The notes: generated by a model not told the origin, from the letters alone. A stretch of 64,000 nucleotides of DNA from an uncultured archaeon (GCA_964631415.1 CAZVZC010000005.1:2018-66017); one strand, 5' to 3'. Shown: positions 2,411-62,527, counted from the stretch's first letter. Made by a program: numbers and translations.

Positions 2411-2530
2411 TACTGATATGTTTGGCTGGACATATCACTGCGTTGATGGCAATATGAACGTTAGGGAAGAGCGGCTATTCGGTTGTCGGATTATCCCTGC
2501 GAACTCGATGAGCAACGGAGTTTCGGAGAT

Positions 2531-3316: not shown

Positions 3317-3407
3317 AGTATGGATTTGAAACCCGCATTCGCTATTAGTCTGCCGAATGAACCAATCAGGTTTTAATGTCTGGAATCGTGGAGTGCCAGT
3401 GACCGAC

Positions 3408-7884: not shown

Positions 7885-7981
7885 GGGCCCGTGGCTCAGC
7901 CAGGATAGAGCGCCAGCCTCCTATTCAGCAGTCGGCTGAGGTGCTAGTTGGTGATCGCGCGTTCAAATCGCGTCGGGCCCG
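7885..7981 (+). tRNA. tRNA-Arg (anticodon CCT) with a 22-nt canonical (37/38) intron
   Basis: Acceptor GGGCCCG/CGGGCCC. D arm GCTC..GAGC. Anticodon stem CCAGC/GTTGG, loop CTCCTA|intron|A. The intron is 7924-7945, with hairpin TCAGC/GCTGA and the C32:G(-3) pair of a BHB. T arm GCGCG-TTCAAAT-CGCGT. CCA is encoded. Confidence 0.85.
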
Positions 7982-11270: not shown

Positions 11271-11408
11271 GCCCCAGTTGCATAGACCGGTTAGTGCACC
11301 TGACTTGTATGTGGAGAGGCATGGACCTCTCAACTACGTCATCAGGTGGTCGCGAGAACCGTCTGCTCTCCAAGCAGGCGATCGCGGATTCAAATCTCGC
11401 CTGGGGCT
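11271..11408 (+). tRNA. tRNA-Thr (anticodon TGT) with two introns (37/38 and 53/54)
   Basis: Acceptor GCCCCAG/CTGGGGC. D arm GCAT-AGACCGGTTA-GTGC. Anticodon stem CCTGA/TCAGG, loop CTTGTA|31-nt intron 11310-11340|A. T stem GCGAG|32-nt intron 11357-11388|TTCAAAT-CTCGC. Both introns fold into BHB motifs. CCA is encoded. The track ORFs 11263..11700(-) and 11294..11593(+) overlap it and are spurious. Confidence 0.8.
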
Positions 11409-12966: not shown

Positions 12967-13101
12967 TGCCGCAGGGGGGATTTGAGCCCCCGACTTCGAG
13001 ATTGCTCAACTTACCAGTGTTGAGACTTGACCCCATGTGTACCCTGAGGACTTCAGGGAGATTATGAGTCTCGCGCCCTAAACCAGCTAGGCCACTGCGG
13101 C
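12967..13101 (-). tRNA. tRNA-Met or Ile2 (anticodon CAT; elongator type) with a 60-nt canonical intron
   Basis: Minus strand. Acceptor GCCGCAG/CTGCGGC. Anticodon stem CGAGA/TCTCG, loop CTCATA|intron 13003-13062|A. A perfect 4-bp helix CTCA:TGAG precedes the splice-site bulges. T arm GGGGG-CTCAAAT-CCCCC. Discriminator A and CCA are encoded. G1:C72 argues against an initiator. Confidence 0.8.
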
Positions 13102-48199: not shown

Positions 48200-51100
48200 T
48201 CACTTTCCATCACATCCTATGACTGCCTGGGCCTCCTCAAATTCGTAGGCCACGAGGTTTGGAGGTTTTACAGCATCTTCATTCAGATATTCTGCGGCTG
48301 TCAATACACACACTGTCTGGGTGGACTTGCAGACGTTACAGACCGGGTCGTTGACAGACTGCAGAAGTGCATTGAGTTCCTGCTGGCTCGGAAAGACAAT
48401 GTACGACTTCCTATCGGCACAGAGGTTGTAGTGACCATGATTTCGCAAAACCCGATCACTTGATTTGACAAGCTCTGCTTCAAGAGCCGCCACAGCCCTC
48501 TCCCTCAGCTCTACAATCTTTGAACCGCTGACGGCCCAAAGCCCTTCTTCGAGGTCCTGAAACACTTCCTTGTCCTTCACTCTCAATGCAACCAGCTTCT
48601 CATCCACCAGTAGCTCAGTCAGTGCCCGTCTTCCCTCATCTTCACTCATAGGAATCGATCTGCTTCTGACAGACTGGATTGCCGTTGTCTGGATGAAATC
48701 CAAGAGCGTGTTCCACCGAACTTGGCCCCCTGACAATTCCACAAAGTCTTGAATCGTTCCGAACCACAAACGCGTCTGAACTGCAGAAGCCGAAGATGGA
48801 ATCTGCTCATGCATCACGTTTCTCAGATGCCTATCCACAGGCCTGTCGACCATATCAACAGTGCTGATCTCGCTTCGTCCGTCCGCATGTTTCTTCCTTC
48901 TCTTGAGCTGGGCTTGTACCATGCTCTCGAGAGAGCTTGGAAACGCAGACACGACAGTGACAGAGTCGAAGTCTTCACTGGCATCCATAAGTTCTCTCAA
49001 ACGTGTGGCGGCAACACTTCCTCTTACAACGACGTAGAGCTCAGCAATTCCATTTCCCAAGCAATTCATACGATGTCGAATCCAGTCAAGCGTGCTCTCC
49101 ATTGACGAAGCTTTCAAATGCTCAGGGATTATCACTACTGCCTTATCCTCTATCACAATATCTGGCTCATCAGTAGACGTCTTTTCGGAAGTGGCCATCT
49201 TTCCAAGTGCCTTCAATATGTGCTGGGCGATGGCCTGCCTTACAGCCTCTAATCCCTTCCCGGGCAGTGTGAACAAGAAACCTCCAGAAACCAACGGCAG
49301 CGACTCCCGTTCGATTGTTCCCAGACAAATAAGGTCGTGAATCAACTCCGTTGTGTCCTCGTTTCTGATTCGTGGGTCTAATGTCGTCAGGAAATGCTGC
49401 AGTTCATCATCTGTAGCAGCCCTCTGTGATGCAAGAAATGCAACAACCCTATTTGCCAGTTCACCGAGCCTATCAAACACCAAGCACTGATGTACGTTCT
49501 CCTCTGAAGCACCCAACTCAGTTCCAGCGGCTTCTGACGCAGACGCGGGCAATACCGGGTATCTCTCCACACCACTGTGCTCATCACTCATGCTGTCCGC
49601 TACTGAATCGGTGACATCTGAAAGCTGATCATCTGGTGATAAACGGGACTGTGGTATCACGCTGAATCGTGTTGTGACAATCTCAAAGGTTTCCGTCTGA
49701 GGCGTGACAATAAGTGCTCTTCCAACTTTCAGTATCCTAAGATAGCGCTCCTGCTCCTCGTTTAGGGACATGAACCTGCCCCCAACCGAGCTGTCGTATG
49801 GTAGTCGGAAAGTGATTTTTGTTGACGTGTTGGCCAGAATGTTGGAAGAAATGTTAGGCCTAGTTGAAACTACGATAACACCCTGTCCAGTTGCTCGCTG
49901 TAACATGACCATAGATTCACCAGTGGTAACGTCCGCAGCGGACTGTCGCGTATAGCTCTCCGGCACAAGGTTGCTTGCCTCTTCCAAGACGACAACATGT
50001 ACAAGTTCGGGGGTGATGCCACGGCGCATCGCACCATCGAAGATGCGCTTTGCAACGAGATTGTAAAGCAACCGCGCCGCATCCATCCCACCAACCCTTG
50101 CGACATATCGTAGGTCGAATATGACTCGCCTGTCAAGTAGAGCTGACATCTTAACAGCATTAGGTCCTCCGCAGAGTATCGATCCAAGTGGTTCACGCGA
50201 GAGTATCTCAAGGCGATTTAGCAGTGCATCTCTTGTCAGGCTTCCTGTGCGGTCATTGCCCGCAAGTTCATTAACTGTGTCAATCAATGCATCTACTGAG
50301 TTGCCCCGCCTGTCTTCCCTAGCAACCTTCAGAACAGACTCCCTTAGCAGCTTCTCCATTGCAGGCGAGAGTTCGGTTGATGTTCCCATCTCCTTAAGCA
50401 GTTCTCTGAGGATGGCGAATGTTGTGTATGCGTGTCTTTCACCTGTGTCCACTTCTGGGTCCATCATGTCTATCACAAAAGAGGGATCCAATCCCGGGCG
50501 CAGAATCATGACTTCGTCGTTAATATCCACGAGGTCACTGTACTCTGACCCCTTAACGTCAAAGATCCACCATGGCACATTGGTCTTGAGAGTCAATTCG
50601 GCCATCAGGTGTTTCACCAGAGTTGTCTTTCCCGTTCCCGTGGCTCCCATGACAGCAACATGCTCTCTCAGCCACTCCTTCTTCAAACCCACTCTGTTGA
50701 GCTGTCGTCCTCCATAGACGGTCCATCCAATGAAGAGTTCATTGTCGACTAGCTCTCTTGCCGGGACTGGGAAGCTAGGTGTCTGTATGGCAGAAACAAC
50801 TGGCACACTCTGCACTGGAGTGTTCACGAACGCGGCAAGTCTACCCACATGCAGTTTCCGGGGTTTGAAATGGCGTCTTGTAAGCAGTTTCCAAGCCATG
50901 CCTGTACCGACCCTCATGTCCCTTACGAGGACACGACTATCCCCACCCCAAATGGATATGGCAAGTCCCATCACCCCCTCCTGAGCCATCTTCAACTGAG
51001 TTGCGCTTGGGGCGCTCACAACGACATATACAGTTGAGTTGAACCAGCTTTCATTGCCCTGCACTTGTTCGTACTGATCCAAGAGGTTTTTTTTCGCGGC

Positions 51101-52024
51101 TTGATCGACCAGCGAGTCCTCTCGCTTTCGCTCTCTCTCGCGAATGGATCTCCACTGACCCTCCATTTTCCTTCTCTCTCTGCCAGGTTTGGCACTGGAG
51201 AAGACACAGGTCAGACTCAAAGAAAACCCCTGTTTCAACGCGGTGGACAGGAAAGTGCCAACTTGCGATGATGAAGGTGAGGGTGCCACTCTAGGGGCAC
51301 CAGTGAACACCATTAGCGATTTCTGGAGGTCGGCTTCACCGTGCAATCGACTCTCCAGCATTCCTTCCTCGACAACGGATTCGGCCGCTTTTCCCAGAGC
51401 ATCGCCCCTCAATTGATGTAGTTCAAGATTGACTAGAGACGCCAGAAGGATTGCCTCTGTTCTCGTCGCCTCTCTCCTCAGGACTTGCATCATTTCTTCC
51501 AAGTGGCGACCGGTCATACTAATGAAAAACCTCAGAAACGGTTCTCCCTTAGCTAGTCCGGCCTCATATGCCACCGTGACTCTGTGATCCATACCTGCGC
51601 GTAGAGCCAATAGCATCGCCGTATTGTACTTAGGTTTGTCATCGGGTCCACACTCCACCGATCCTGGTGCAGATGTGATTTCAAGACAGCACATCGCAAT
51701 CAAACGGTTTCCTAGACAGACTACAAGGAACTCATCTTGCACTGAGGATGATATGCCTTCAACAAGAGTTCCTAGACATGCCAAGACTGCTCCTGCAGAG
51801 ATTGGCACTCCACAGACCAGAATCTCTACCAGAAGTTTCGACGGAACAGTGGGCTGTTCGATGAAACCGGCTAGTGGAAGCATGTAGACCACAATCAGAT
51901 ACAGGGCACATGCCACTGCTCCAAACGCATAGACTGTTCTAATCCAATGCCCACAATTCAACATGATTCTATCTGCGATGTTTCTCCTGTTGTTTCCGGG
52001 TGTGCTAGTGCTCATCATAAGCAA
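48200..52024 (-). CDS. Giant (1274 aa) membrane-anchored HerA/FtsK/VirB4-class P-loop ATPase with an uncharacterised C-terminal half
   Basis: N-terminal hydrophobic helices (VYAFGAVACALYLIVVYMLPLAGFI, LLVEILVCGVPISAGAVLACLGTLV). Central DUF87/HerA-type motifs: HVAVMGATGTGKTTLVKHL (Walker A), WWIFDVKGSEY and HVVVLEEASNLVP (Walker B). About 480 C-terminal residues carry no recognisable catalytic motif, only wHTH-like stretches. Confidence 0.75.
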   Translation of the reverse strand: MLMMSTSTPGNNRRNIADRIMLNCGHWIRTVYAFGAVACALYLIVVYMLPLAGFIEQPTVPSKLLVEILVCGVPISAGAVLACLGTLVEGISSSVQDEFLVVCLGNRLIAMCCLEITSAPGSVECGPDDKPKYNTAMLLALRAGMDHRVTVAYEAGLAKGEPFLRFFISMTGRHLEEMMQVLRREATRTEAILLASLVNLELHQLRGDALGKAAESVVEEGMLESRLHGEADLQKSLMVFTGAPRVAPSPSSSQVGTFLSTALKQGFSLSLTCVFSSAKPGRERRKMEGQWRSIRERERKREDSLVDQAAKKNLLDQYEQVQGNESWFNSTVYVVVSAPSATQLKMAQEGVMGLAISIWGGDSRVLVRDMRVGTGMAWKLLTRRHFKPRKLHVGRLAAFVNTPVQSVPVVSAIQTPSFPVPARELVDNELFIGWTVYGGRQLNRVGLKKEWLREHVAVMGATGTGKTTLVKHLMAELTLKTNVPWWIFDVKGSEYSDLVDINDEVMILRPGLDPSFVIDMMDPEVDTGERHAYTTFAILRELLKEMGTSTELSPAMEKLLRESVLKVAREDRRGNSVDALIDTVNELAGNDRTGSLTRDALLNRLEILSREPLGSILCGGPNAVKMSALLDRRVIFDLRYVARVGGMDAARLLYNLVAKRIFDGAMRRGITPELVHVVVLEEASNLVPESYTRQSAADVTTGESMVMLQRATGQGVIVVSTRPNISSNILANTSTKITFRLPYDSSVGGRFMSLNEEQERYLRILKVGRALIVTPQTETFEIVTTRFSVIPQSRLSPDDQLSDVTDSVADSMSDEHSGVERYPVLPASASEAAGTELGASEENVHQCLVFDRLGELANRVVAFLASQRAATDDELQHFLTTLDPRIRNEDTTELIHDLICLGTIERESLPLVSGGFLFTLPGKGLEAVRQAIAQHILKALGKMATSEKTSTDEPDIVIEDKAVVIIPEHLKASSMESTLDWIRHRMNCLGNGIAELYVVVRGSVAATRLRELMDASEDFDSVTVVSAFPSSLESMVQAQLKRRKKHADGRSEISTVDMVDRPVDRHLRNVMHEQIPSSASAVQTRLWFGTIQDFVELSGGQVRWNTLLDFIQTTAIQSVRSRSIPMSEDEGRRALTELLVDEKLVALRVKDKEVFQDLEEGLWAVSGSKIVELRERAVAALEAELVKSSDRVLRNHGHYNLCADRKSYIVFPSQQELNALLQSVNDPVCNVCKSTQTVCVLTAAEYLNEDAVKPPNLVAYEFEEAQAVIGCDGK

Positions 52025-52421
52025 ACTTCACGACCGCGCCACACTGTCGAATCATGATTCATCTGGGAATGCCAATTCCAAACACCCTGTGCCAGTGTCT
52101 GCAATTTGAACTCCCCCGCGACTCTTCCTCTGTCGACACATTGGCGTTCAGTTTTCAAGTGTTGTGACTAACTGGAGTCGCTGTTCCGTTGGTCACGTGA
52201 ACAGATTGGAGATGGCTAGTTTGCAATGGTTCTAGGAGGTTAAAAGACACGCTCCACTAACGAGAAAGCAGTGGATTGGATGAGAAACAGAGCCGTTTCC
52301 GAACAGGACATTGCCAGTTCAAGCGACGGACCAGTAATATCAATCCGATTCGTCAGAGGTACGCCCCGGACTCGATTGGGACCAAGGGGGCAAGACGACA
52401 AACCCTCCTGAGGCATGCTCA

Positions 52422-54386
52422 ATGAGGAATGAGTCTGTTCTTATTGGAGCTGCATTTGCCCTGATGCTCTTCATGTTTGTAGCCTGCACAGAAACAGCGT
52501 CTGCAGAAGAAGCGTCTATCTGTCGGGGTGACGTTGCAACCATCACCATTATCTTGCTCCAGAATGGCACCTATGGAAACCCTGTTTCCAACCAACCTGT
52601 GGAATTCTTCGATCAGACCCTTGATGTGTTCTTGGGTTTGGCCCTGACTGGTGTGGACGGGCACGCCCAGTTCGAATGGTCGCTACCATTAGACCATCCC
52701 CTTGGGCCGACCATCATTAATGCCACCTATCGTGGTAACGAAACCCTAGCACTCGCTCCTTCATTCCAATGGACATCGATTACTGTTCTCTCCCCAACAG
52801 AAATGGATATTCGAGTCGAACGGAGCGTTATCTTTCCCGGGGATGTCCTGCCATTCACAGTCCTACTCTTGAACGATATGGACCTTCCACTGCCGTATGC
52901 ACAACTCACTGTGTTTTGCAACAGAATGCCAGTCGTGTCCGGGGTAACGAACTCGTCCGGTTGGGCCCGGTTCACTGTACAGTGCAACGACTCATGGGCT
53001 TGTCTTGGAGAGAATGAAATCCGGGTTGTCTATGAACGAAACCTGACAGCCTTCAACGAGGCGGTAGCAGAGTCATTCATGATCACGATTGAGCAAGTTT
53101 CCACAAGCATCGAAGTTGCAGAGCCCCCTCCGGAGTCGTATGGGCTCAATGATACTCTGCTTACAGATTTCATTCTAAAGTCCGACGATGGAACACTACC
53201 TGGGGCCAGACTTCAAGTTTCTCTGGACGGAGTTTCTCTTGCTGTTGTCTTGACTGATGAATCTGGTACGGCATATGTGTGCCTAATCATAGACGCCAGA
53301 TTCAGTCTAGGTCCTCATACATTGACCATCGAATATCCGGGCAGTTCCCGATACGCTTCATGTTCACGTGAGATATATGTCACCGTTTCAAGCATTGCAA
53401 CTATTCAAGTCACTCTTCAAGAGCCTGTCATTATCAACACAGACAGCAACATCACCATTGAAATCGGGGATCTGTTCGGCCGTCCGATACCGAATGCTAC
53501 CGTCATTCTACGGGACCTAGTTAGCAACGAAACCCTTGCCAATGCTGTCCCTGCTGGCAAGACCTCTGTAGGCTTCAGCCTCCGCATTGTAGGAAGAAGC
53601 GGAGCTAGGAGCTTTCTTGTCCGCATTATTGGAAACGAGCACATCATGAACAGGACTTATGCATTCAGTGCCTTTGTGTGGTCTCGTCCTGACTTGATAC
53701 TAGTCAGAAGCACCATCAGGGGGTATGCTTCCCCCAATCAGCTGGTAACACTCGAGGTCAAGCTATGCGACTCCCAAATGGCCTACACTGGCACACTTGT
53801 GGAAGCTTGTATAGACAATACAACAGTCGTTTCCCGTGCATTCACGAATAGTTCTGGCCTTGCGGTCATTCAGATCAAAGCTCCGCAGCTTGAAGGTCCG
53901 TTCGATACATGGATTGTCTACCGAGGCAATCTGACTGCCTTTAGAATGTCTAATGCTCTGCACTATAGTTTCATCGTTAGCAGAACAGTCCCACTGGCGA
54001 TTGAACTGTACCACTACGCAGTCATTTTGCCACTGCAACAGCTCGAGGTTGTCTTAATGGCTTGTGCTCTCAATGGATCCTTGCTAGAGGGGGTGACAAT
54101 AAACTATGAATGGCTTTCCGTTCGAGGAAGCGCAGAGAGCACGCATGGTGGCTTGTCCCAACTGTACCTGCCAGTACCTGGATATCCGGGTTCGTTCAAT
54201 CTCTCCTACTGGACCGAATCCTCTTCATACATACTCTCATGTATCGGACACTTCGTCATCAATCTGAATGGAACTGAAGTTGCAGCGGCTCAAGGTGTCG
54301 GCATCACTGGTATGACAGCAAGCATATGCGTTTCACTAACACTGGTGGCTATACCAATCATCAGAAAGAGGTACCTGCTGGACTGA
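52422..54386 (+). CDS. Large secreted/surface protein with repeated Ig-like (beta-sandwich) modules and a C-terminal transmembrane anchor
   Basis: 654 aa. Signal-like N-terminus LIGAAFALMLFMFVACTETASA. Repeated modules follow the pattern G.P..NA.V......TNSSG.A....Y.GN. There are many N-x-S/T sequons. The C-terminus is GITGMTASICVSLTLVAIPIIRKRYLLD. Confidence 0.65.
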   Translation: MRNESVLIGAAFALMLFMFVACTETASAEEASICRGDVATITIILLQNGTYGNPVSNQPVEFFDQTLDVFLGLALTGVDGHAQFEWSLPLDHPLGPTIINATYRGNETLALAPSFQWTSITVLSPTEMDIRVERSVIFPGDVLPFTVLLLNDMDLPLPYAQLTVFCNRMPVVSGVTNSSGWARFTVQCNDSWACLGENEIRVVYERNLTAFNEAVAESFMITIEQVSTSIEVAEPPPESYGLNDTLLTDFILKSDDGTLPGARLQVSLDGVSLAVVLTDESGTAYVCLIIDARFSLGPHTLTIEYPGSSRYASCSREIYVTVSSIATIQVTLQEPVIINTDSNITIEIGDLFGRPIPNATVILRDLVSNETLANAVPAGKTSVGFSLRIVGRSGARSFLVRIIGNEHIMNRTYAFSAFVWSRPDLILVRSTIRGYASPNQLVTLEVKLCDSQMAYTGTLVEACIDNTTVVSRAFTNSSGLAVIQIKAPQLEGPFDTWIVYRGNLTAFRMSNALHYSFIVSRTVPLAIELYHYAVILPLQQLEVVLMACALNGSLLEGVTINYEWLSVRGSAESTHGGLSQLYLPVPGYPGSFNLSYWTESSSYILSCIGHFVINLNGTEVAAAQGVGITGMTASICVSLTLVAIPIIRKRYLLD

Positions 54387-54397
54387 AATCCCAATGG

Positions 54398-54504
54398 TGC
54401 TCCGGCCGGGATTCGAACCCGGGTCTGGGGATCGAGAGTCCCCAATGCTGGGCCGGACTACATTCGGCCGCACAACGAATCTGACTCGGTGCGTCTACCG
54501 GAGC
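54398..54504 (-). tRNA. tRNA-Glu (anticodon CTC) with a 32-nt intron between positions 10 and 11
   Basis: Minus strand. Acceptor GCTCCGG/CCGGAGC. Anticodon arm GGGGA-CTCTCGA-TCCCC. 4-nt variable loop. T arm CCGGG-TTCGAAT-CCCGG. The intron is 54463-54494. The BHB is central helix CGGT:GCCG, bulges AG|A and AA|T, distal helix CGCAC/GTGCG. The spliced D arm is GTG-TAGTCCGGCCCAG-CAT, typical of tRNA-Glu. CCA is encoded. Confidence 0.8.
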
Positions 54505-54758
54505 TTGGGCTGTGCCAGCCCGGAGCGGGCCATCACCCTCTACGAAGCAAATAAGGCTTTCTCTGCAAAGACGCGGTATTTTCGATTTGAGAGGGATGCT
54601 GGCAAAGAACTACGGTCTATCATTGAGCGAACCATGGATGGTTTCAGAGCACCAGCCACGTTTCCGATTCGTTTCAACCTGGCTTGCTCACTTTCAATGA
54701 CAGCCGATTGAATCCAAACATTCAAGCGGCCTCGATCTGCTTACCGTGACTGGGTGTA

Positions 54759-54965
54759 TCATGGACCGAATAGCTGGGTGAGACTACTCCAGCTGTCTTG
54801 GAGGAGCTGAAGCAGACTGCTCACAACACCTTGTGCCCATCCTGTTGCCTCGAGGATGACTGCTATTATGATGGAAACAGTGACCACAGCTAGACCAAGA
54901 AGCAGGCTCTCCTCTACCAAGGGTCCTCCAATCTCATTGTTCTTCAGCTCAGTCTGCTTCGTCAT
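54759..54965 (-). CDS. Small protein with a class-III-signal-peptide-like (archaeal pilin/Flp-like) N-terminus
   Basis: 68 aa: MTKQTELKNNEIG|GPLVEESLLLGLAVVTVSIIIAVIL... It has a short polar leader, Gly at -1, Glu at +5 and then a hydrophobic helix. It lacks the usual K/R at -2. It lies downstream of, and co-oriented with, the secretion-type ATPase. Confidence 0.35.
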   Translation of the reverse strand: MTKQTELKNNEIGGPLVEESLLLGLAVVTVSIIIAVILEATGWAQGVVSSLLQLLQDSWSSLTQLFGP

Positions 54966-55128
54966 CTCACAAACCTATCCAAGGGTTCTCTTCGAGGCTA
55001 TATTAAGTCCTCATGTTCTTGGCCCGGAGATAATGCGCCCTCTCAGCAAACCCTAACATACTCCACCAGCACAACTTAGTGTGTCAAAGGCTGGCCAACC
55101 GTGTGCAAAGGCGACATTTGATGTCGTT

Positions 55129-56925
55129 TCAGCCCCGGTACACAAAGGGATGACCGTTTTTCCATAGCCGTTCCCCTATGAACATAGTAGTGTCCATACC
55201 GGACCCGCCAATTTCGTTCTCAAGTTCATGAAGCAGCCTCTCATAGGCGGGCATATGACTTTGAATGCTTTGTTCCCGGGAATGAATCACAAATGCTCCA
55301 TCCTCCCCCCACTTCGGGATTCTAGGCTTAGGCAGCTGACTTGACAAGACCGTATTCAGCCCCACGAATCTCAGTAGGCCATCAATAACCTGTCTTCTCA
55401 CTTCAACAACCTCTTTGAGTCGTCGTGTAGCTTCTCCTGGTGTGGGCCGCTCCATAGTGACTATGAGGTCCATAAGTGCAACACTCGACTTGTCAATGCC
55501 GTGATCCGATGTCCAGCGAGAAATGAGGCTTGATGCAGAGTCACTATGGCACGTCTGCATCGTATGAAGACCAGCCGCAATTGCCTGAAACAAAGCACGA
55601 CTGTGTTCTGCAGTCTGAATCTCGCCAAGAACAAGATAGTCAGGTGATCTGTGAAGGCTCTTGACAATCTCCTTGCTCTTGTCAAATCCGGGCTCGTTCT
55701 CGTCTACTGGATCGACCCTGATTCTTACTTGGTGATAGCCTTTGATGGCCCTACTCTCGACGGCATCTTCAATGTAGACTTTTCTCCAGCTTCGTGGCGT
55801 GGTCATGTCCAGAGCATTCAGAAGAGTAGTCTTCCCGGACCCCGGACCACCTGTTATCGTAATGTTGAACCTAGCAGACACAGCAAGCAACAGTATCGCT
55901 GCAGCCTCCATACTCAGTGTGCCGTTGCGAACCAAGTCTGCTACCGAATATGGGCTCCTACGGGCCCTGCGCATCTCAAGGTGCAGTCCATCTGGACTCA
56001 AAGGTGGTAGGCTCAGAGAGAGCCGCAGGGCCGCATCACAGACCGACATCTCTGTCTTGAGTGAGGGGTTTCTCCGGTCGAGATGGAAATTGCTCTCAGC
56101 CCTTACCAGTGTGACGATACGATCAACATCATCTTCGTTGAGGGTCGTTGTCGAACAACACCTTCCCAAACGCCGATGGTCAAAGTAAATCTGACTCTCC
56201 GGCCGGTCTAGGTAAACTTCCTCTACCTCGTCATCCAGCAGAATCGGAAGGAAGCATCGGAGGGCTGTTGATCGATGTGCTATGATCTCTGCGATTCTAG
56301 TCCTAGTGATAGTGCCTACCTCTGGCAGTGAGTGCGAGATTCTCGCTGCAACGATTCCGGAAATTCGTGTAAGTCTGGTGTTGATGCTCTCCCTGGACAG
56401 AAACGGTGTATTATCAAACAGACTCCTGTCGGCACCCAATTCATTCAGTAACGTCATTTCAAGGCGAGTTCTAACAAGTGGGACCGCTTGGTGAAGCAGA
56501 CCTGAACTGGATCTACACTCACGAAAGACTGACAGGTAGGGCCCAACAAGATATGCTTCAGATACCAGCTGAATCGTGTCAAAGAAACCTTGGTCCTCAA
56601 TGTAGACTGATTCCCAGCCCTCCGATTGCCAAGGTGGCTCGTTGAGCAGTCTTCCATCGTGTCCTCCAAGATGAACTAGGCTCTTCTCAGGTTCGACGAC
56701 CAAGACCTTGGCTCTCCGGCCATCATCAGAACTGTTCAAGGCTAGCTGTCTGCATGGCCCAGGCTCTGCATAATCACATTCTGTGCACCGTGCCTTGGGG
56801 CATACGACAACAGTAACCAAGTGTTTTACCACATGGATCCAACTCCATAGCATCGGATGTGAATCGAATCCGCAAGCCTGAAGCTGCAAACAGCAACCGT
56901 TTGTTTCGTCAAGCGGCAGATACAA
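55129..56925 (-). CDS. Type II/IV secretion / type IV pilus assembly ATPase (VirB11/FlaI/TadA family)
   Basis: 598 aa. Walker A ITITGGPGSGKTTLLNAL, Asp/Walker B region SPDYLVLGEIQTAE and His box GLHTMQTCHSDS. There is an N-terminal extension with the Cys cluster CPKARCTECDYAEPGPC. Confidence 0.8.
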   Translation of the reverse strand: MYLPLDETNGCCLQLQACGFDSHPMLWSWIHVVKHLVTVVVCPKARCTECDYAEPGPCRQLALNSSDDGRRAKVLVVEPEKSLVHLGGHDGRLLNEPPWQSEGWESVYIEDQGFFDTIQLVSEAYLVGPYLSVFRECRSSSGLLHQAVPLVRTRLEMTLLNELGADRSLFDNTPFLSRESINTRLTRISGIVAARISHSLPEVGTITRTRIAEIIAHRSTALRCFLPILLDDEVEEVYLDRPESQIYFDHRRLGRCCSTTTLNEDDVDRIVTLVRAESNFHLDRRNPSLKTEMSVCDAALRLSLSLPPLSPDGLHLEMRRARRSPYSVADLVRNGTLSMEAAAILLLAVSARFNITITGGPGSGKTTLLNALDMTTPRSWRKVYIEDAVESRAIKGYHQVRIRVDPVDENEPGFDKSKEIVKSLHRSPDYLVLGEIQTAEHSRALFQAIAAGLHTMQTCHSDSASSLISRWTSDHGIDKSSVALMDLIVTMERPTPGEATRRLKEVVEVRRQVIDGLLRFVGLNTVLSSQLPKPRIPKWGEDGAFVIHSREQSIQSHMPAYERLLHELENEIGGSGMDTTMFIGERLWKNGHPFVYRG

Positions 56926-57022
56926 ACTAAGCTGCCGGCCTCACCGATTTAAGGCCCCTCAGGTGATAATCCGAAAGGAGGCATCTTCAGGTGGTACCTG
57001 CTCTGGTGTCATGAAACAAGGC

Positions 57023-58090
57023 TCAGGCAGACAATTCTGGGGCCTTCGTGGTACCTTCGTCCAAGATTTTCTTTATCATCCCGTAGTGGTCGCGGATGCT
57101 ATACTCTGCCACTTCTGTCGCGTTGGAAACCAGTTTCTGAGTCAACACAGAATGCCTCCCATGCTCAATAGCCACTATCCGGTCACTAGCATAGGCGACC
57201 GAAACAACAAATATGAACGGGTTTCGACCACCTCTCCTTGAGGCCGGTATGAGATCGAGGACTACAAACATTTTGTTCCTCATGGCGTTCTCATATTCCT
57301 TGGAATCCCATTCTCTCAACTTTGCTTTGCCAACAACCTCCGGACTATTCATGAGCATCGACAACACCCTAGGGATGTAATCCTCGGGCTGTCTCAGATC
57401 TGGTGCATGACCTGTCACAGACTTGAGTCGCATCGCTTCGCGGACCATTGCACGCACATTCACTCTGTGCCCGCACTTCTCAAAGACATCAGCTATCTCC
57501 TCCAGAGTTATCGGAGCTTCGTCCTTGAACTCACGTACTGCCATCAGCAGACATACGGCCATTAGGAGAATGTTATTGGTGATTCTGTCTTTTGCATCTG
57601 AGATGACTTTCTTGTAGAGATACGCAGTCCGATCGCGTACCTGATCGCTCAGCATTAGTGATTTCGAAACATGATTGAGCGTTCTGAGTGCCCGGTACTT
57701 TGCCTCACTCCTCCCGATTCTTATGCGTGCACTGTACACAGTCTTCAGTCGTTTGAATCTCTTCTGCGCAAGGCCGGACAAGGCTTGACCGTGAGCATCT
57801 CGGAAATACGTGTCCTTGTGAAAGCCCATGTAGCTTCCAAGCCCGTCTACAATATGCATTCTGTTTCCCAGTGAAACATACATGGCTGCATCCGGAGTTT
57901 CGCCATGTTGTTCCTCCCCCATCTGGTAAGTTGGATGCACATATTCCCTAGAAACCACAAGTCCACATTCGGTGCATACTATGTGCCCCTGACTGGTCAC
58001 CAGTTGCCCCGAACAGTCCGGACAGGACCATGAAGAGGTTGCGAGCTGTTCACCTGTTTCATTAACCAAGGGCTGTACCACAGGAGACAC
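57023..58090 (-). CDS. tfb: Transcription initiation factor IIB (TFB)
   Basis: N-terminal zinc ribbon CPDCSGQLVTSQGHIVCTECGLV followed by two cyclin-fold repeats. 355 aa. Confidence 0.9.
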   Translation of the reverse strand: MSPVVQPLVNETGEQLATSSWSCPDCSGQLVTSQGHIVCTECGLVVSREYVHPTYQMGEEQHGETPDAAMYVSLGNRMHIVDGLGSYMGFHKDTYFRDAHGQALSGLAQKRFKRLKTVYSARIRIGRSEAKYRALRTLNHVSKSLMLSDQVRDRTAYLYKKVISDAKDRITNNILLMAVCLLMAVREFKDEAPITLEEIADVFEKCGHRVNVRAMVREAMRLKSVTGHAPDLRQPEDYIPRVLSMLMNSPEVVGKAKLREWDSKEYENAMRNKMFVVLDLIPASRRGGRNPFIFVVSVAYASDRIVAIEHGRHSVLTQKLVSNATEVAEYSIRDHYGMIKKILDEGTTKAPELSA

Positions 58091-58248
58091 TCATCATTCG
58101 AACCCATAACTGGATTCTAGGCGCTCCTGTTCTCTTCACAAGGCATGTATGTCTGCTCCATCGAACACGCATGGCTACTAAGCAGTTGTTTTCACCCTAC
58201 CGAGAAAGGGGGGTTTCCGAAACTACTGCATCTTCCGACGGACGCTTC

Positions 58249-58614
58249 TCAAGTGATCATGATATAGAACGTATTAGATGCGAAAGTCTTGCTCTGTGAG
58301 GGCGTTGGCTTAGCAATCCCAAGCACAACTCTAAGGCCCCCCAAAGATCCCAGTACCTCAAGCCCTTTGTTCTCACTTCTCCGGAAGACGGTGCCCTCAC
58401 CGTACAGCCTCGCCTGTTCTCCCTTAGGAATAGCCTTGGAGTCAATGACCACATCAACGTGATCCTTGACACCAAACCTACTGGAAAGCGCTTCTGGAAG
58501 TTCAATCGTCAGTGTTGCACCATCACTCTTGGACGACACCTTCAAGAGCTTGAGCCTCTTAGTGTCCGTTTCCCTGATCAGTTCGATGATGGCATCCTTG
58601 AGCCTGACACCCAT
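58249..58614 (-). CDS. rpo8: RNA polymerase subunit Rpo8 (RpoG) / eukaryotic Rpb8-like
   Basis: From the ATG at 58614: MGVRLKDAIIELIRETDTKRLKLLKVSSKSDGATLTIELPEAL...ARLYGEGTVFRRSENKGLEVLGSLGGLRVVLG...FYIMIT. This parallels yeast Rpb8 (..KVCRIEAAS..CKLTLDINVELFP...YVMYGTAYKFEE...YYSFGGLLMRLEG...AYLLIRR). It is adjacent to tfb. Confidence 0.55.
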   Translation of the reverse strand: MGVRLKDAIIELIRETDTKRLKLLKVSSKSDGATLTIELPEALSSRFGVKDHVDVVIDSKAIPKGEQARLYGEGTVFRRSENKGLEVLGSLGGLRVVLGIAKPTPSQSKTFASNTFYIMIT

Positions 58615-58737
58615 AACCCTAGCACATCCAGTAGATTGAGTCTTCGTGGTGAGCGGCCGAAGGCATTGAATTAAACCTGTCGCTGTTCTCTTGTGCCGTT
58701 TTTTAGGCACTGCAGTGACAGTTGTTCGGTGGGCCCG

Positions 58738-61428
58738 ATGCTTCCGAAACTGCTAGCCATACTATTCCTGTCCGTGGCAATGGCATCCTACTTTGTGGCA
58801 CCGGTTTCGGCGTTCTATTTTGAACTCTACTACTTCGAAACCGACAAGATGGTGTACGAGGTCGGGGAAACAATCGAGATGGTCGTCAAGGTCGCTGCTG
58901 AGTTCAGCGAAACTGGGTCATGTGACGCCTATTTCGCTGTTGTCAGAAGTAACGACTCCGTGACTGTCTTCTATGACGGCTACAGCATCCCCTCTGAGTC
59001 TGGTCTTCGCTTTCTGACTTCGCCTTACGTCATAATGCCCCGTGACATCACCCCGGGAGTCATTGGCGCGAAAATGCAGGTGGTCTTTAACATCGTCGTA
59101 TATGACGAGTATACCCAAGGCAATCACACGCAAATCGAGGTTGATGTGAAAAGAGGTCACCTAACAACGTTTCCTGAAAGCCCACTGTCGGTTGAGTTCG
59201 GGACCAACACGACAGTTCTGCTGAGGATAGCAAGTCCACACAACAACAACGTGGTTCTATCCAACGAAACCGTTTCACTCTACGTCCAGAACCCAGACGG
59301 TTTACCAGTGTTTCAAGCGGAAGCATCGACAGACTCACAAGGTCTGGTGCAGTTGAATTGGACCAAATCCATGGGTCCACCAGGGGTATACAATCTGACT
59401 ATCAATGGAGCCGGCACTGCTTCATTCCTGCCGTTTTCGGAATCGCTACAAGTCACTGTGCAACTTGGAGCATCGAGTCTGGAAGTACTGAGTGCCACGG
59501 AACAGGTCTACTGCCAATCCTCCGACTGTACTCAAACAGAGTTCGCGAAAGTCACGGTTGAACACTTCAGCACATCGCACTCTCCTATCTATGATAGCGA
59601 AGTGCAATGGAATGCATCATTTGGCTGCGGGTTCATGAACAATCTAGGGAACGGGACCTATAGTGCACTAATCCCTTTCAGTACCGGACCCGGACTGTAT
59701 ACCATTGGCCTCACAGCGACAAATGCTCTTTATCAGATTGCTGCGAGGACAGTTGTCATACGAGCCAATAGCAGACCACTATTGGCGAACGTCACACTGC
59801 TCTCTGAAGTAGTATGCGGCACGCCATTCCAAGTCCGAGTGCTAATCGCGGACGGGTTGAGCGGAACCCCAGTCGGATCACTTCCGTTCACACTCGGGGT
59901 TACAGTGGGTAACGAAAGCCTGACCATAGTAGAGGGTGCCACCAACTCCTCAGGTGCCCTGCAAATCACAAGGTACATACCAACCACATTCTGGGGTACC
60001 GGGTTTCTATCTTTGATTATCCATAACACAAGCCGCTACAGCGATCTATCGGAAACACTACCGATTGATGTCCTATACTGTCCTAAGGTGTCGGTTCAAA
60101 TAGAAACCCCGATTATGGTGAACCATGATGCAGAAGTTCGCCTGCTCCTGTTAGATCCCATTGGATCTCCGGTCTTCGGTGCAGTAGTCGAGCTTCATAC
60201 TCCCGACAATGTCACAGCGGTCATGAACACTACGAGCTATGACGGTACCACACTCCTCCGCTGGCGAGTTCCTCTAGGAACTGGCCTTGGAAACCAGACT
60301 CATTCGCTAGTGATACACAGAAACGGTGGAAGGTTCATCAGTCATACAACGAGAGACTTGGTGTTCATGGTTCTTTGCCCACTTTTTCTTGAGCCTTTCA
60401 ATGGCACACTGCAGGTCATACGGGGTCACAACGTATCTATTCGACTCACAATGGTGTCGGAAGGACCCAAGTACCAACTAATCGACCTTATGCTCCGAAG
60501 CAATGACAGTTCATTGACAACTTCAGCTGTGGTTTCCACTGACACCTATACGGAAATCACGCTGACGGCGAACTCAAGCATCGTTCCGGGTCCATACGTG
60601 GTCTATGCAGAAGTCCTATCCGGGCCATTTGTCATATTGAACCAGCCTCAGATCGAAGTCATTGTCATTGGGACTCTACAAGCGAGTTTCACCATTGTTT
60701 CGGCATTCTATGCTGAAGCCCTCGTTGTCAATCCTATTGTGAGGGATGACACTGATAGCACACCAGAATCGGTATCGGCAACCTTGTATTTCATTGATTG
60801 CGGACTTCAGATCTCCTTGGATCTGGCTCTTCCTCGTATGGCATGGTCCATTTCACTGCCCCTTCAAGTGGCCCCCGGAGCTCAGAATGTCACAATCGAG
60901 ATCAGCCTTCCTTGGTTTGTCGCGGCACATAGGTCTATTCTCGTATTTGTATGGATGCGGACAAGAATGGTGATCTCAGTATCGACCTACAAACCAAACA
61001 AGACTGGTTCTGTCGTTGGGCTTGAACTGGTTCAAGTCCCTGACAGCACATCGAGTAGCTCCCCCGGTTCAATCATAAGTCCTCCACCAATCTTGTTCAA
61101 TGGCACGACTTCAACCTTGTTGCCCACTGCACGAGAAACCTCTCTCACAAGCTGTCCGAGGTTGAGCTCTGGCACTAACAACCTGTCGACTGTGTCGGCA
61201 AACTGCCTCACTTCCGAATCAGGGAACGGCCATACAGTTCTAAGCCTCAAGGAACGGACCGACAAGGAACTCGTTCTGTTCACTACCACTTCTTCCACAG
61301 TTCTCGAAGTACTTCCGAAGGAAACTACCCCCCAATCCGCTGTCTGGGGCCCTGAAACAACCACATCAGTCAGAAGGGCGCTCTCTCTCAGAATCTTGTC
61401 CGTCAGTCTCCGCACGAGCCTGTCGTGA
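58738..61428 (+). CDS. Very large secreted/surface protein with repeated Ig-like modules (paralog-like to 52422..54386); its 3' end overlaps korA
   Basis: Signal peptide MLPKLLAILFLSVAMASYFVAPVSA from the ATG at 58738; the track ORF starts at 58693. It has the same G.P/NSSG/Y.GN-type beta-sandwich repeats and many N-x-S/T sequons. The last ~130 codons (61032-61428) are antisense to korA, are Ser/Thr/Leu-rich and contain no anchor helix. Confidence 0.6.
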   Translation: MLPKLLAILFLSVAMASYFVAPVSAFYFELYYFETDKMVYEVGETIEMVVKVAAEFSETGSCDAYFAVVRSNDSVTVFYDGYSIPSESGLRFLTSPYVIMPRDITPGVIGAKMQVVFNIVVYDEYTQGNHTQIEVDVKRGHLTTFPESPLSVEFGTNTTVLLRIASPHNNNVVLSNETVSLYVQNPDGLPVFQAEASTDSQGLVQLNWTKSMGPPGVYNLTINGAGTASFLPFSESLQVTVQLGASSLEVLSATEQVYCQSSDCTQTEFAKVTVEHFSTSHSPIYDSEVQWNASFGCGFMNNLGNGTYSALIPFSTGPGLYTIGLTATNALYQIAARTVVIRANSRPLLANVTLLSEVVCGTPFQVRVLIADGLSGTPVGSLPFTLGVTVGNESLTIVEGATNSSGALQITRYIPTTFWGTGFLSLIIHNTSRYSDLSETLPIDVLYCPKVSVQIETPIMVNHDAEVRLLLLDPIGSPVFGAVVELHTPDNVTAVMNTTSYDGTTLLRWRVPLGTGLGNQTHSLVIHRNGGRFISHTTRDLVFMVLCPLFLEPFNGTLQVIRGHNVSIRLTMVSEGPKYQLIDLMLRSNDSSLTTSAVVSTDTYTEITLTANSSIVPGPYVVYAEVLSGPFVILNQPQIEVIVIGTLQASFTIVSAFYAEALVVNPIVRDDTDSTPESVSATLYFIDCGLQISLDLALPRMAWSISLPLQVAPGAQNVTIEISLPWFVAAHRSILVFVWMRTRMVISVSTYKPNKTGSVVGLELVQVPDSTSSSSPGSIISPPPILFNGTTSTLLPTARETSLTSCPRLSSGTNNLSTVSANCLTSESGNGHTVLSLKERTDKELVLFTTTSSTVLEVLPKETTPQSAVWGPETTTSVRRALSLRILSVSLRTSLS

Positions 61429-62165
61429 GTTCCCGGGTCCGAAGTCATCCTGAGCCCGTTGTTGTCGTGGGTTGAACCAGTCACGAGCAGATTGTGTCCA
61501 TCACCAAACCTAGGCATTACTGCGTGCCCGCTCTCATCAATGCCGCCATACGACGGTTCTCCTGTCCGTGCGAATCTTCTCCGCACTGTCACATCTCTGT
61601 TCTTTGTGATAACAACCCTCTCTCGAGAGTGAGCCACAATCTCGTCGGACAGCAGTATCGTTGGGTGTCTCAGGCGTTCAGACAGGAAGAAGGCCTTCAG
61701 GGTCAGCTCATAGGTTTCTTCTGCTGAGCTGGGGGCAAGCACTATGCTCTCGTAGTCCCCATGAGATCCCCATCTGGCTTGCATGACATCTCCTTGGGCT
61801 GCCTTAGTGGCTTGTCCTGTGCTCGGGCCTGCTCTCTGGACGTCTACGATGACACAAGGTGTCTCAGTCATGATGGCATAGCCAATACCTTCCTGCATCA
61901 GGCTGAAACCCGGTCCCGAGGTAGCAGTCATTGAAAGGAGTCCACCCCACGAGCTACCAATGATGGCGGAAACTGCCCCTATCTCGTCTTCCATCTGGAG
62001 GTACGTACCCCCCACTCGTGGTAACCTTTCAGCCATGATTTCGGCAATCTCAGATGCTGGTGTGATTGGATAGCCAGCAAAGAAGCGGCAGCCCGCAGCT
62101 ATGGCTGCTTCAGCACAAGCTTGGTTCCCTTGCCAGAAGTAAACCGACCCGCCTTGGCCAGACAT
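61032..62165 (-). CDS. korA: 2-oxoacid:ferredoxin oxidoreductase alpha subunit (KorA/PorA-type)
   Basis: GNQACAEAAIAAGCRFFAGYPITPASEI, MEDEIGAVSAIIGSSWGG, TSGPGFSLM, VIVDVQRAGPSTG and the C-terminal LLVPELNLGQL. The start is placed at the ATG at 62165 (MSGQGGSVYFWQGN). No beta subunit is present downstream. Confidence 0.85.
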   Translation of the reverse strand: MSGQGGSVYFWQGNQACAEAAIAAGCRFFAGYPITPASEIAEIMAERLPRVGGTYLQMEDEIGAVSAIIGSSWGGLLSMTATSGPGFSLMQEGIGYAIMTETPCVIVDVQRAGPSTGQATKAAQGDVMQARWGSHGDYESIVLAPSSAEETYELTLKAFFLSERLRHPTILLSDEIVAHSRERVVITKNRDVTVRRRFARTGEPSYGGIDESGHAVMPRFGDGHNLLVTGSTHDNNGLRMTSDPGTHDRLVRRLTDKILRESALLTDVVVSGPQTADWGVVSFGSTSRTVEEVVVNRTSSLSVRSLRLRTVWPFPDSEVRQFADTVDRLLVPELNLGQLVREVSRAVGNKVEVVPLNKIGGGLMIEPGELLDVLSGT

Positions 62166-62390
62166 TCTTGGGACTCTCGATGCCTGCGTCGTTCTAGTGT
62201 TAAGATAAGACTTCTGCAATAGCTCCCCAGTCAAGTTGCCGAGAAGACTACGATGCAGTCACATCATATGAACCGCCAGTCTTGAGAAGGATTAATCGCA
62301 ATCCTAGACTTGGATACCAACCAACACCAATCGGCGTTCAGTCTTTGGTGTCATTGAAATGAAACAAGCACAGCGATTTTTGCCGATAGT

Positions 62391-62424: not shown

Positions 62425-62527
62425 GCGGCCATGGTCTAGTATGGTCTAGGACGGGAGCCTCCCAAGCTTCCAACCCGAGACGGTTTCATTGACAGTGACC
62501 GCGGGAGTTCAAATCCCGGTGGCCGCA
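62425..62527 (+). tRNA. tRNA-Gly (anticodon CCC) with a 28-nt intron at 53/54
   Basis: Acceptor GCGGCCA/TGGCCGC. D arm GTCT-AGTATGGTCTA-GGAC. Anticodon arm GGAGC-CTCCCAA-GCTTC. T stem CCGAG|intron 62480-62507|TTCAAAT-CCCGG. The BHB is central helix CCCG:CGGG, bulges AG|A and AG|T, distal helix CGGTT/GACCG. The spliced T stem has an A52.C62 mismatch. CCA is encoded. Confidence 0.75.

Follow-up and report, generated by a model that had tools for sequence, protein, structure and literature searches.

Subclade 4D of the archaeal type IV pilus-like systems, described in Pyrobaculum and Thermoproteus, has an unknown function and is said to have no pilins (Makarova, Koonin & Albers 2016, PMC4858521). 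Its ATPase (arCOG05558) carries an extra Cys-rich N-terminal domain and is accompanied by a membrane protein with 4-5 transmembrane (TM) helices that is unlike known families, by a TFIIB homolog (arCOG05559) within the operon and by an adjacent RPB8 gene (PMC4858521). A 2026 preprint restates this view of 4D and reports type IV filament systems to be nearly absent from Asgard archaea (bioRxiv 10.64898/2026.04.22.720090). Among the DNA import systems of Sulfolobales, CedD is a membrane-bound protein of the HerA/FtsK superfamily that consists of TM, N-terminal and ATPase domains and is experimentally essential for DNA import (PMC11868833). After DNA damage, the transcription factor TFB3 of these organisms turns on both the Ced system and the Ups type IV pili, and CedD is part of the TFB3 regulon (PMC11823120). 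Here, we analyze a locus at positions 48200-61428 of a 64,000-nucleotide stretch of DNA from an uncultured archaeon (GCA_964631415.1, CAZVZC010000005.1:2018-66017; the whole stretch is referred to as the window), which may represent the Thorarchaeota version of an old module of TACK and Asgard archaea, in which a 4D-like filament machine is coupled to a CedD/VirB4-like translocase. We regard this reading as evenly balanced between right and wrong. Literature searches for a description of VirB4, HerA or pilus systems in Asgard archaea found none.

The core of the proposed module is an ATPase of the TadA/FlaI family with a Cys-rich N-terminus plus a small Flp-like prepilin; in relatives of the locus, it also includes a membrane partner of one or two proteins. 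Genetic linkage ties the core to a membrane-anchored CedD/VirB4-like hexameric ATPase and a dedicated TFIIB paralog, and in Thor-type archaea also to an Rpo8-like gene, as in Thermoproteales. Asgard versions add envelope proteins with signal peptides and immunoglobulin (Ig)-like repeats; Ig1 has a C-terminal TM helix as its anchor. A preliminary description of the window had listed five genes with envelope or translocation signatures; all of these open reading frames (ORFs) are present, with the start of the secretion ATPase moved, and the tRNA-Glu, tfb and rpo8-like genes that it saw interspersed among them were all located in the window. The protein-coding genes of the locus are the following:

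48200..52024, minus strand: VirB4/CedD-like ATPase of 1274 amino acids (aa) with TM helices, a VirB4-like N-terminal domain, a P-loop motor and a C-terminal extension
52422..54386, plus strand: surface protein Ig1, 654 aa, with a signal peptide, beta-rich repeats and a C-terminal TM anchor
54759..54965, minus strand: Flp-like prepilin candidate, 68 aa, with a polar leader, the motif G↓G/S-P-L/V-V-E-E (the arrow marks the predicted cleavage site), a hydrophobic helix and an amphipathic helix
55129..56853, minus strand: ATPase of the T2SSE superfamily (TadA/FlaI/GspE2/VirB11) with an N-terminal Cys4 cluster and a PF27713 domain
57023..58090, minus strand: divergent TFB/TFIIB paralog, 355 aa, matching Pfam TFIIB (4e-6) and Zn_Ribbon_TF
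58249..58614, minus strand: Rpo8 (RpoG/RPB8)-like protein, 121 aa, with its start set by alignment at M33 of a 153-aa ORF
58693..61428, plus strand: surface protein Ig2, a 911-aa ORF with a Sec-type signal peptide and a likely start at M16 (58738)

The gene order of the window recurs throughout Thor-type archaea, for which counts refer to metagenome loci holding enough sequence to judge each partner. Three genomes at 50-60% identity and about 45 metagenome contigs share the order Ig2, Rpo8-like gene, TFB paralog, T2SSE ATPase, peptide, Ig1 and VirB4-like ATPase. The T2SSE gene lies upstream of the peptide gene in 45 of 46 loci, the TFB paralog is present in all 33 loci and the Rpo8-like gene is adjacent in 31 of 31, Ig-like proteins occur on both sides (29/29 and 39/39, the latter being Ig1 downstream of the peptide) and the large ATPase is found in 30 of 31. 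Local inversions affect two loci (L023 and L088), in which the genes are still together. This arrangement is not due to chance. By itself, however, synteny among Thor-type archaea proves little, because the housekeeping genes that flank the locus (amino-acid kinase, S10, GlmS, KorA and Cdc6) are as syntenic as the candidate genes, and what decides the matter is the comparison with other phyla.

Helarchaeota provide the first such comparison. Four of their loci (L007, L010, L013 and L019) contain the TFB paralog, a VirB4-like ATPase, the peptide, an Ig-like protein and the T2SSE ATPase, in an order unlike that of Thor-type archaea. The TFB ortholog (40-43% identity) stands directly upstream of the gene for a VirB4-like ATPase of 1375-1583 aa, the Ig-family protein of about 600 aa carries a signal peptide and a C-terminal TM anchor, and the T2SSE homolog is 31-38% identical and has the motifs YxDHxxxGRC and NPSLK in common with the window protein. 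Straight after the T2SSE gene, L013 and L019 encode a polytopic membrane protein of 503 aa with seven TM helices in a 2TM-loop-2TM-loop-3TM layout; L007 and L010 break off inside the T2SSE gene, so that the membrane partner cannot be judged there. The Ig-like family also stands beside paralogous VirB4-like genes in Helarchaeota L015 and L016.

Methanomethylicia (TACK) hold a more compact version. Three genomes (L096, L097 and L098), whose T2SSE proteins are 42-45% identical, share a co-directional operon that encodes the T2SSE ATPase, a membrane partner (one or two proteins of 251-331 aa), a peptide of 61-79 aa and a TM-ATPase of 604-609 aa, with a TFB-like gene upstream; in L096, the stop of the peptide gene overlaps the start of the ATPase gene. 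This operon ATPase matches the NCBIfam model of CedD at 9e-63 (213 bits). Three loci of other Thermoproteota (L024, L028 and L029) show a TFB-like gene, the T2SSE gene, two genes for proteins with three TM helices and the peptide gene. Ig-like proteins are absent from the Methanomethylicia and Thermoproteota versions of the locus. The membrane partners of Helarchaeota and Methanomethylicia are homologous (3e-24 and 3e-71), and jackhmmer searches with them found nothing in the window or in any Thor-type locus. Likewise, ORF hydropathy and Pfam searches identified neither a FlaJ/TadC-like platform nor a prepilin peptidase (A24 family: TadV, PibD or EppA) in the 64-kb window. A filament machine can therefore not be built from the Thor-type locus alone, since both the membrane partner and the peptidase are absent there. 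The absence of a platform protein, a central point of the preliminary description, thus stands for the window and about 45 Thor-type loci and falls for the system as a whole, whose Helarchaeota and Methanomethylicia versions have a membrane partner.

The linkage of the core components across Thorarchaeota, Helarchaeota and Methanomethylicia, despite shuffled order, is well supported. The proposal that the genes belong together is borne out by this comparison of gene neighborhoods in relatives, for reasons that differ from those originally given. The T2SSE ATPase, the peptide and the TFB paralog very probably form one unit. It is likely that the VirB4-like ATPase belongs with them, and for the Ig-like proteins the balance tips slightly towards inclusion.

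The secretion ATPase is clearly recognizable in sequence searches. Its ORF (55129-56925, minus strand) has 598 aa, and the alignment of homologs puts the start at an ATG at 56853 or a GTG at 56832, which corresponds to a protein of about 567-574 aa. It matches Pfam T2SSE at 5e-23, and the Walker A and B motifs, the Asp box and the His box are intact. Among NCBIfam models, the TadA-like TIGR03819 (8e-30) leads FlaI (5e-23), TrbB (8e-21) and VirB11 (7e-19), all of them under their cutoffs. Structures in the PDB give matches to afGspE (2oap, 2e-25), CpaF (1e-18) and FlaI (2e-16) with 93, 70 and 63 bits for this FlaI/TadA/GspE2 side, as opposed to 24 bits (1e-4) for VirB11, and FlaI and afGspE match as well as or better than TadA/CpaF. 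The N-terminal cluster CPxxRCxxC...C is conserved in the Thor-type homologs, Cys-rich N-termini are also present on the ATPases of Thermoproteota and Methanomethylicia, and PF27713 (UCP018868) appears in the precomputed annotation of both Thor-type and Methanomethylicia homologs. The matches listed by a word-indexed search from the TACK T2SSE ATPases, a listing filled by close homologs, were all Methanomethylicia relatives.

The 68-aa peptide begins with MTKQTELKNNEIG before and GPLVEESLLLGLAVV after the predicted cleavage site. Between Thor-type genomes it is 76-81% identical, compared with 50-60% for the neighboring proteins, and it is kept better than the product of any neighboring gene. 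Clear homologs occur in Helarchaeota, Methanomethylicia and other Thermoproteota. The pattern derived from 74 unique sequences is x-(R/K/Q)-G↓(G/S)-P-(L/V)-V-E-E-(S/G/A)-L-L; a hydrophobic stretch of about 20 residues and then an amphipathic helix come after it. Gly occupies position -1 in 68 of the 74, and Pro+2, Glu+5 and Glu+6 are invariant. A Glu at position +5 after the class III (prepilin) cleavage site is typical of bacterial type IV and Flp pilins. The layout of the peptide resembles that of a class III signal, a comparison with established knowledge that serves as a lead, and one homolog has been labelled "Flp pilus assembly pilin Flp" by JGI. A further arrangement was seen on unclassified contigs (L032:9917-11048, L066:3597-4734, L038:9941-11768 and L070:9968-11758), in which the gene for a membrane protein of about 95 aa comes directly after the pilin-like gene or is fused with it. 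This protein has a W..G..GKK loop between two hydrophobic helices, giving it a VirB2-like look; a membrane protein of about 210 aa comes next, and no ATPase gene lies within 10 kb.

The large ATPase comprises three parts that are discussed separately:

51785..51946, minus strand: N-terminal TM helices of the large ATPase, aa ~27-80 (Kyte-Doolittle windows at aa 27 and 62)
49655..50707, minus strand: P-loop motor, aa ~440-790, with Walker A GATGTGKT and Walker B VVVLEEA (Pfam and NCBIfam)
48203..49477, minus strand: Thor-specific C-terminal module, aa 850-1274, with two repeats of a winged helix and an alpha/beta fold and a conserved Cys cluster

Hydropathy indicates two or three hydrophobic helices at the N-terminus; homologs have two in Thor-type archaea and four to six in Helarchaeota. 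The Walker A and B columns of the motor are invariant in alignments of 24 and 38 sequences. Pfam recognizes a DUF87/HerA core at aa ~445-780 (E 1e-13), and of the NCBIfam families CedD scores best (2e-11), with 43 bits where the cutoff is 600. TIGR00929 (VirB4) scores 1.6e-3 and HerA_Thermprot 1.4e-4, and the FtsK_SpoIIIE match (1.6e-3) covers only 50 residues. The assignment to VirB4 needed structure prediction, because PDB searches with a single sequence and with a profile gave only short, P-loop-sized matches to HerA. An AlphaFold2 (AF2) model of aa 111-1274, built from a 38-sequence alignment (predicted local distance difference test, pLDDT, 72), has full-length VirB4/TrwK of the R388 type IV secretion system (T4SS) as its top Foldseek match (E 8e-17, ~800 columns). 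This match spans the N-terminal domain and the motor and ranks above HerA (1e-9) and TrwB; the isolated C-terminal domain of VirB4 (4ag6) gives a TMt of 0.66. The large ATPase thus models as a VirB4-type protein by fold, with CedD as its nearest named family. The preliminary description had presented the fusion of TM segments to the ATPase as a novelty; CedB and CedD often carry fused TM segments, and nearly all of the more distant homologs of the window protein have N-terminal TM helices.

More than 200 full-length homologs were found in Thor-type archaea (50-90% identity), and their divergence (50-60% identity) parallels that of the host lineages. An exhaustive HMMER scan of 1.8 billion representatives yielded only about nine clusters of full length, of which the nearest (44-53% identity) were taken as Thor-type, and a second tier at 25-35% identity that covers the N-terminal domain and the motor only. 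The names in this second tier are Helarchaeota, Baldrarchaeia and Hodarchaeota, nearly all with one to six N-terminal TM helices; a genome scan with a narrower alignment returned Helarchaeota only. The C-terminus of about 480 aa is conserved in the alignment, and a separate AF2 model of the last 425 residues (pLDDT 81) predicts two repeats, each with a winged helix and then an alpha/beta domain. Its Foldseek matches are all weak (E 2e-3 to 0.2) and include, for the winged helices, RNAP III arrays, MukE/F and MarR and, for the restriction-endonuclease fold, FokI, XPF/Hef and YaeQ. The modelled winged-helix and nuclease-like folds are compatible with nucleic-acid binding.

For the TFB paralog, the NCBIfam TFIIB model scores 62 bits against a cutoff of 384, and a PDB sequence search matched nothing. 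Its gene lies directly upstream of the T2SSE gene in the window, and its orthologs are likewise upstream of that gene in Methanomethylicia and Thermoproteota and adjoin the VirB4-like gene in Helarchaeota. The identity of the Rpo8-like protein rests on a weak match to Pfam RNA_pol_RpbG (E 0.038, 14.5 bits against a cutoff of 27), and a PDB profile search found nothing. The presence of tfb and rpo8-like genes had been counted as an argument against a functional unit; they are instead conserved hallmarks of the system, because the Thor-type string fits the published description of 4D.

Ig1 shows Pfam matches to Ig-like and MG domains below threshold (Big_3_5, Big_1 and CarboxypepD_reg) and, by hydropathy, TM segments at aa 3 and 625. 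According to jackhmmer, Ig1, Ig2 and the anchored protein of Helarchaeota (599 aa) form one family. The domain part of Ig2 finishes near aa 770, and the final ~130 codons of the ORF overlap a convergent KorA/POR-alpha-like gene (61032-62234, minus strand) at the 3' end of that gene, in antisense. This read-through recurs in the L005 ortholog, and the stop of the L003 ortholog corresponds to aa ~765; the overlap may be genuine, or the tail may be an artefact that arises because the antisense frame has few stops. Ig2 varies in length, with 551 aa in L003; L001 is without a called gene, and a homolog was found there by tblastn.

The window has a G+C content of about 50% and contains archaeal housekeeping genes. 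All close homologs of its proteins are labelled Thorarchaeota, Promethearchaeota or Sifarchaeia, and on account of these labels and the housekeeping genes it is taken, from sequence, as a chromosome segment of a Thor-type Asgard archaeon. One tRNA gene is interspersed in the locus:

54399..54473, minus strand: tRNA-Glu(CTC), found by ARAGORN and Rfam

Of the Thor-type loci checked, only about half have it at this position, between Ig1 and the peptide gene, and it is probably not a part of the system. A tRNA-Gly(CCC) gene stands upstream of Ig2 in many Thor-type loci, so that tRNA genes appear as variable passengers. Elsewhere in the window, Rfam identified four long tRNA genes of 97-138 nt (7885-7981, 11271-11408, 12967-13101 and 62425-62527), which presumably bear introns; three were missed by ARAGORN and one was mis-called with an odd 4-base anticodon. 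About 1.3 kb past Ig2, a Cdc6/Orc1 gene (62748-63941) is conserved in L001 and L003, and a replication origin may be near the module given this neighbor. PHROGs and PADLOC returned only generic HerA/P-loop matches, and a defence or phage assignment was not obtained.

Other neighbors recur in the relatives. An EF-2/EF-G paralog of about 720 aa is found beside Helarchaeota VirB4-like paralogs that are without T2SSE and TFB paralog (L012:8334-10502, L014:15334-17517, L015:3-1494 and L016:2818-4992). Between the VirB4-like gene and the T2SSE gene of Helarchaeota (L007:17565-20083 and L019:6548-9063) lie genes for a Roadblock/LC7 protein (322 aa), a 302-aa protein and an Arf-like GTPase, and the same trio adjoins Ig2 in four Thor-type contigs (L041, L049, L060 and L076, at ~930-3360). 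In Myxococcus, type IV pili are steered by the GTPase pair MglA/MglB, which this trio brings to mind. The TACK loci L024, L028, L096, L097 and L098 are bordered by archaeosine TGT, Lsm and the TFB-like gene on one side and by a thermosome gene on the other; these common flanks suggest an old and stable chromosomal position.

We infer filament formation, substrate, direction of transport and regulation from the composition of the module. The TFIIB paralog would turn the module on, and the secretion ATPase would build a short pilus or pseudopilus across the envelope by polymerizing the peptide after its processing. The CedD/VirB4-like motor, held in the membrane by its own TM helices and equipped in Thor-type archaea with predicted winged-helix and nuclease-fold C-terminal domains, would pump DNA, or less likely another macromolecule, across. 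The Ig-like proteins could serve as an envelope scaffold or make contact with a partner cell. By analogy, the module might be a functional counterpart of TFB3, Ups pili and Ced in Sulfolobales, or of the ComG pseudopilus and DNA translocase of competent bacteria. The proposal of filament-assisted translocation is made because the three ingredients known from Sulfolobales, a TFB paralog, a pilus-like ATPase with a pilin and a CedD-like motor, are united here in one neighborhood or operon. DNA translocation as the function of the module is possible, with a chance that we place somewhat under one half. Bolder still, and doubtful in our estimate, is the idea of one hybrid envelope machine, present as early as the ancestor of TACK and Asgard archaea and serving in mating or competence, in which a Tad/Epd-like filament and a CedD/VirB4-like DNA translocase were joined under a private TFIIB paralog (with Rpo8). 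It would work without a TadC/FlaJ-type platform in Thor-type archaea, where the partner of the secretion ATPase would be the TM N-terminus of the VirB4-like motor or another protein.

Several observations weigh against a filament machine coupled to a translocase. No platform, other membrane partner or prepilin peptidase lies within 10 kb in any Thor-type locus, and the membrane partners of the relatives have no Pfam match to T2SSF at E <= 0.1. For the peptide, Pfam families of Flp pilins or class III signals were not matched even at E 10, and a PDB profile search gave no sequence match beyond chance TM matches. A VirB6-like channel (CedA/TedA) and a VirB2-like pilin (CedA1/TedC) were not identified in the window or the Thor-type loci, which contain no polytopic protein and no two-helix pilin. 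With respect to the motor, the CedD score is far under the family cutoff, and the modelled C-terminal module has no Foldseek match better than E 1e-3. The large ATPase is not present in the Thermoproteota group of L024, L028 and L029, several Helarchaeota paralogs of it occur without other parts of the module, and the Baldrarchaeia homolog (825 aa) is encoded amid genes for replication (PCNA, primase and GINS) and translation (ribosomal genes), with no T2SSE gene within 10 kb.

Some of these observations would also be expected if unrelated systems stood side by side, namely the remnant of an adhesion-type pilus, an FtsK-like housekeeping DNA translocase for segregation or repair and a pair of S-layer or adhesin proteins, kept adjacent by Thor-wide synteny. 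The equally syntenic housekeeping flanks, the surroundings of the Baldrarchaeia homolog, the Thermoproteota loci that are without the big ATPase, the FtsK-like layout of TM helices, motor and winged helices, and the position of the genes on both strands with a tRNA gene between them are all in line with this explanation. It is nonetheless unlikely, as the same set of genes appears in another order in Helarchaeota and within one co-directional operon with a stop/start overlap in Methanomethylicia, and the Ig-like family accompanies paralogous VirB4-like genes in Helarchaeota as well. Furthermore, the closest named family of the motor is CedD rather than FtsK or a repair HerA, and NurA, Mre11 and Rad50 were not found near its gene, whose neighbors are Ig1 and the amino-acid kinase gene.

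A different role was suggested for subclade 4D, for which a transcription-related or signalling function has been proposed (PMC4858521). Applied to this locus, a repurposed remnant of a type IV filament system would form no filament, and the ATPase, with the membrane peptide as anchor or regulator, would control the TFIIB paralog and a polymerase that contains Rpo8, e.g. by sequestration of the factor at the membrane. The TFIIB paralog is indeed adjacent in every lineage examined, the Rpo8-like gene accompanies it in all 31 Thor-type loci as in Thermoproteales, the secretion ATPase has an extra Cys4, zinc-ribbon-like N-terminal domain and a platform protein is missing near the Thor-type locus. 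This explanation is quite unlikely in view of the prepilin hallmarks of the peptide (leader, G-1, E+5 and one hydrophobic helix), which is the best conserved of the neighbors, and of the polytopic membrane partner that relatives retain beside the ATPase. In addition, TFB paralogs that regulate pilus and DNA-transfer genes are established (TFB3; PMC11823120), and the Rpo8 assignment on which a polymerase-related role draws is weak.

Very unlikely is a machine for protein secretion or surface display, in which a T2SS-like pseudopilus and the VirB4-like ATPase would export or anchor the adjoining Ig-like proteins. VirB4-family ATPases also drive protein-secreting T4SS, and in both Thor-type archaea and Helarchaeota the module is flanked by Ig-like proteins that have signal peptides and belong to a single family. 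S-layer-like proteins (with a C-terminal TM helix) and adhesin-like proteins are encoded in other type IV pilus loci of Thermoproteales (PMC4858521). The Ig-like proteins, however, carry ordinary Sec signal peptides, are absent from the Methanomethylicia and Thermoproteota versions and, in the case of Ig2, vary in length, and the nearest characterized relative of the motor moves DNA. Finally, an integrated conjugative or mobile element with a T4SS, which the VirB4-like fold, the VirB11-superfamily ATPase and the small hydrophobic pilin-like peptide could bring to mind, is effectively refuted by the chromosomal position between housekeeping genes conserved in dozens of genomes, the uniform G+C content across the region (0.49-0.51), sequence divergence that follows the host lineages, the lack of integrase, relaxase, VirD4, VirB6 and replication genes among the ORFs of the region and the absence of a close relative of the large ATPase in a scan of viral contigs (IMG/VR).

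Subclade 4D has been an orphan for ten years, defined by its ATPase together with the membrane protein and TFIIB homolog and without a pilin or a known function; the locus and its relatives bring a strongly conserved candidate pilin and a recurrent second motor that points to DNA translocation, and place the system in Thor-type archaea and Helarchaeota, with a natural platform-less variant. If the proposed function is correct, Asgard archaea would own a dedicated apparatus for the cell-to-cell exchange or uptake of DNA, which would bear on gene flow in the lineage leading to eukaryotes, and the worlds of type IV filaments and type IV secretion would be joined in one operon. Under the bolder idea of an ancestral hybrid machine, an archaeal mating or competence apparatus would persist in the closest prokaryotic relatives of eukaryotes, and a platform-less Thor-type machine would break the rule that the ATPases of type IV filaments need a polytopic platform.

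The preliminary description had set its claim against an unrelated HerA-NurA-type repair ATPase; this role was rejected, with no NurA, Mre11 or Rad50 gene nearby, a HerA_Thermprot score of 1.4e-4 only and a membrane-anchored protein. FtsK/SpoIIIE proteins have TM helices and C-terminal winged helices, as predicted for the large ATPase, whose motor instead models as VirB4/HerA. The resemblance to T4SS lies in this structural match to VirB4 over the N-terminal domain and the motor, for which sequence models are weak, in N-terminal TM helices that recall VirB3-VirB4 fusions and in a partner ATPase of the VirB11 superfamily. Unlike a T4SS, the genes are part of the chromosome and passed on vertically, no VirB6, VirB8, VirB10, VirD4 or relaxase appears among the ORFs of the region, the peptide resembles a type IV pilin rather than a two-helix VirB2 and the second ATPase is nearer to FlaI/TadA/GspE2 than to VirB11.

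The filament part recalls the Tad/Flp (type IVc) and archaeal Epd systems, with a TadA/CpaF-like ATPase and a very short putative pilin that has a predicted cleavage site after Gly, Glu+5 and about 20 hydrophobic residues. The two small membrane proteins encoded between ATPase and pilin candidate in the Thermoproteota group are placed like TadB and TadC. Differences are the motif, which is G↓(G/S)P(L/V)VEE instead of G↓XXXXEY, the lack of Pfam matches to Flp (PF04964) and T2SSF, and the absence, among the genes found, of a TadV/EppA peptidase, TadZ, secretin and minor pilins, as well as of a platform in Thor-type archaea. The combination of a pilus ATPase of the T2SSE family and a pilin (here a candidate) with a TM-anchored HerA/VirB4-like ATPase and a specialized TFB is that of TFB3, Ups and Ced in Sulfolobales. 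There, however, the ups, ced and tfb3 genes are dispersed, whereas here the parts are neighbors or form one operon; TFB3 is a truncated TFB and the paralog is full-length; and, unlike in Ced, the analysis revealed neither a CedA/VirB6-like channel nor a CedA1/VirB2-like pilin nor a second (CedB) ATPase, with scores of the window ATPase far under the equivalog cutoffs of both CedD and CedB.

The closest described system is subclade 4D, so that the initial view that the locus matches no known type has to be given up: an ATPase with a Cys-rich N-terminal domain together with TFIIB and RPB8 is the published 4D. The Thor-type string of Rpo8-like gene, TFIIB paralog and Cys-rich ATPase fits this description in gene content and domain layout. 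Shared features are the conserved Cys N-terminal domain of the Thor-type ATPase, the TFIIB homolog within the gene string and, in Helarchaeota and Methanomethylicia, a membrane partner (4-7 TM) without a detectable TadC signature; the adjacent Rpo8-like gene would be a further one if its weak assignment is correct. In contrast to 4D, the 4-5-TM membrane partner is missing from the window and every Thor-type locus, and the TFIIB paralog of the window (355 aa) is long enough for two cyclin folds, where arCOG05559 has one. Furthermore, 4D was described only in Thermoproteales, without a pilin or secreted protein, and here a prepilin candidate follows the ATPase, joined by a membrane ATPase of CedD/VirB4 type and by two Ig-like proteins with signal peptides. 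What is new with respect to published 4D is therefore the conserved pilin candidate, the recurrent CedD/VirB4-like motor, the Ig-like proteins, the presence in Asgard archaea and a membrane partner that has been lost or relocated in Thor-type archaea.

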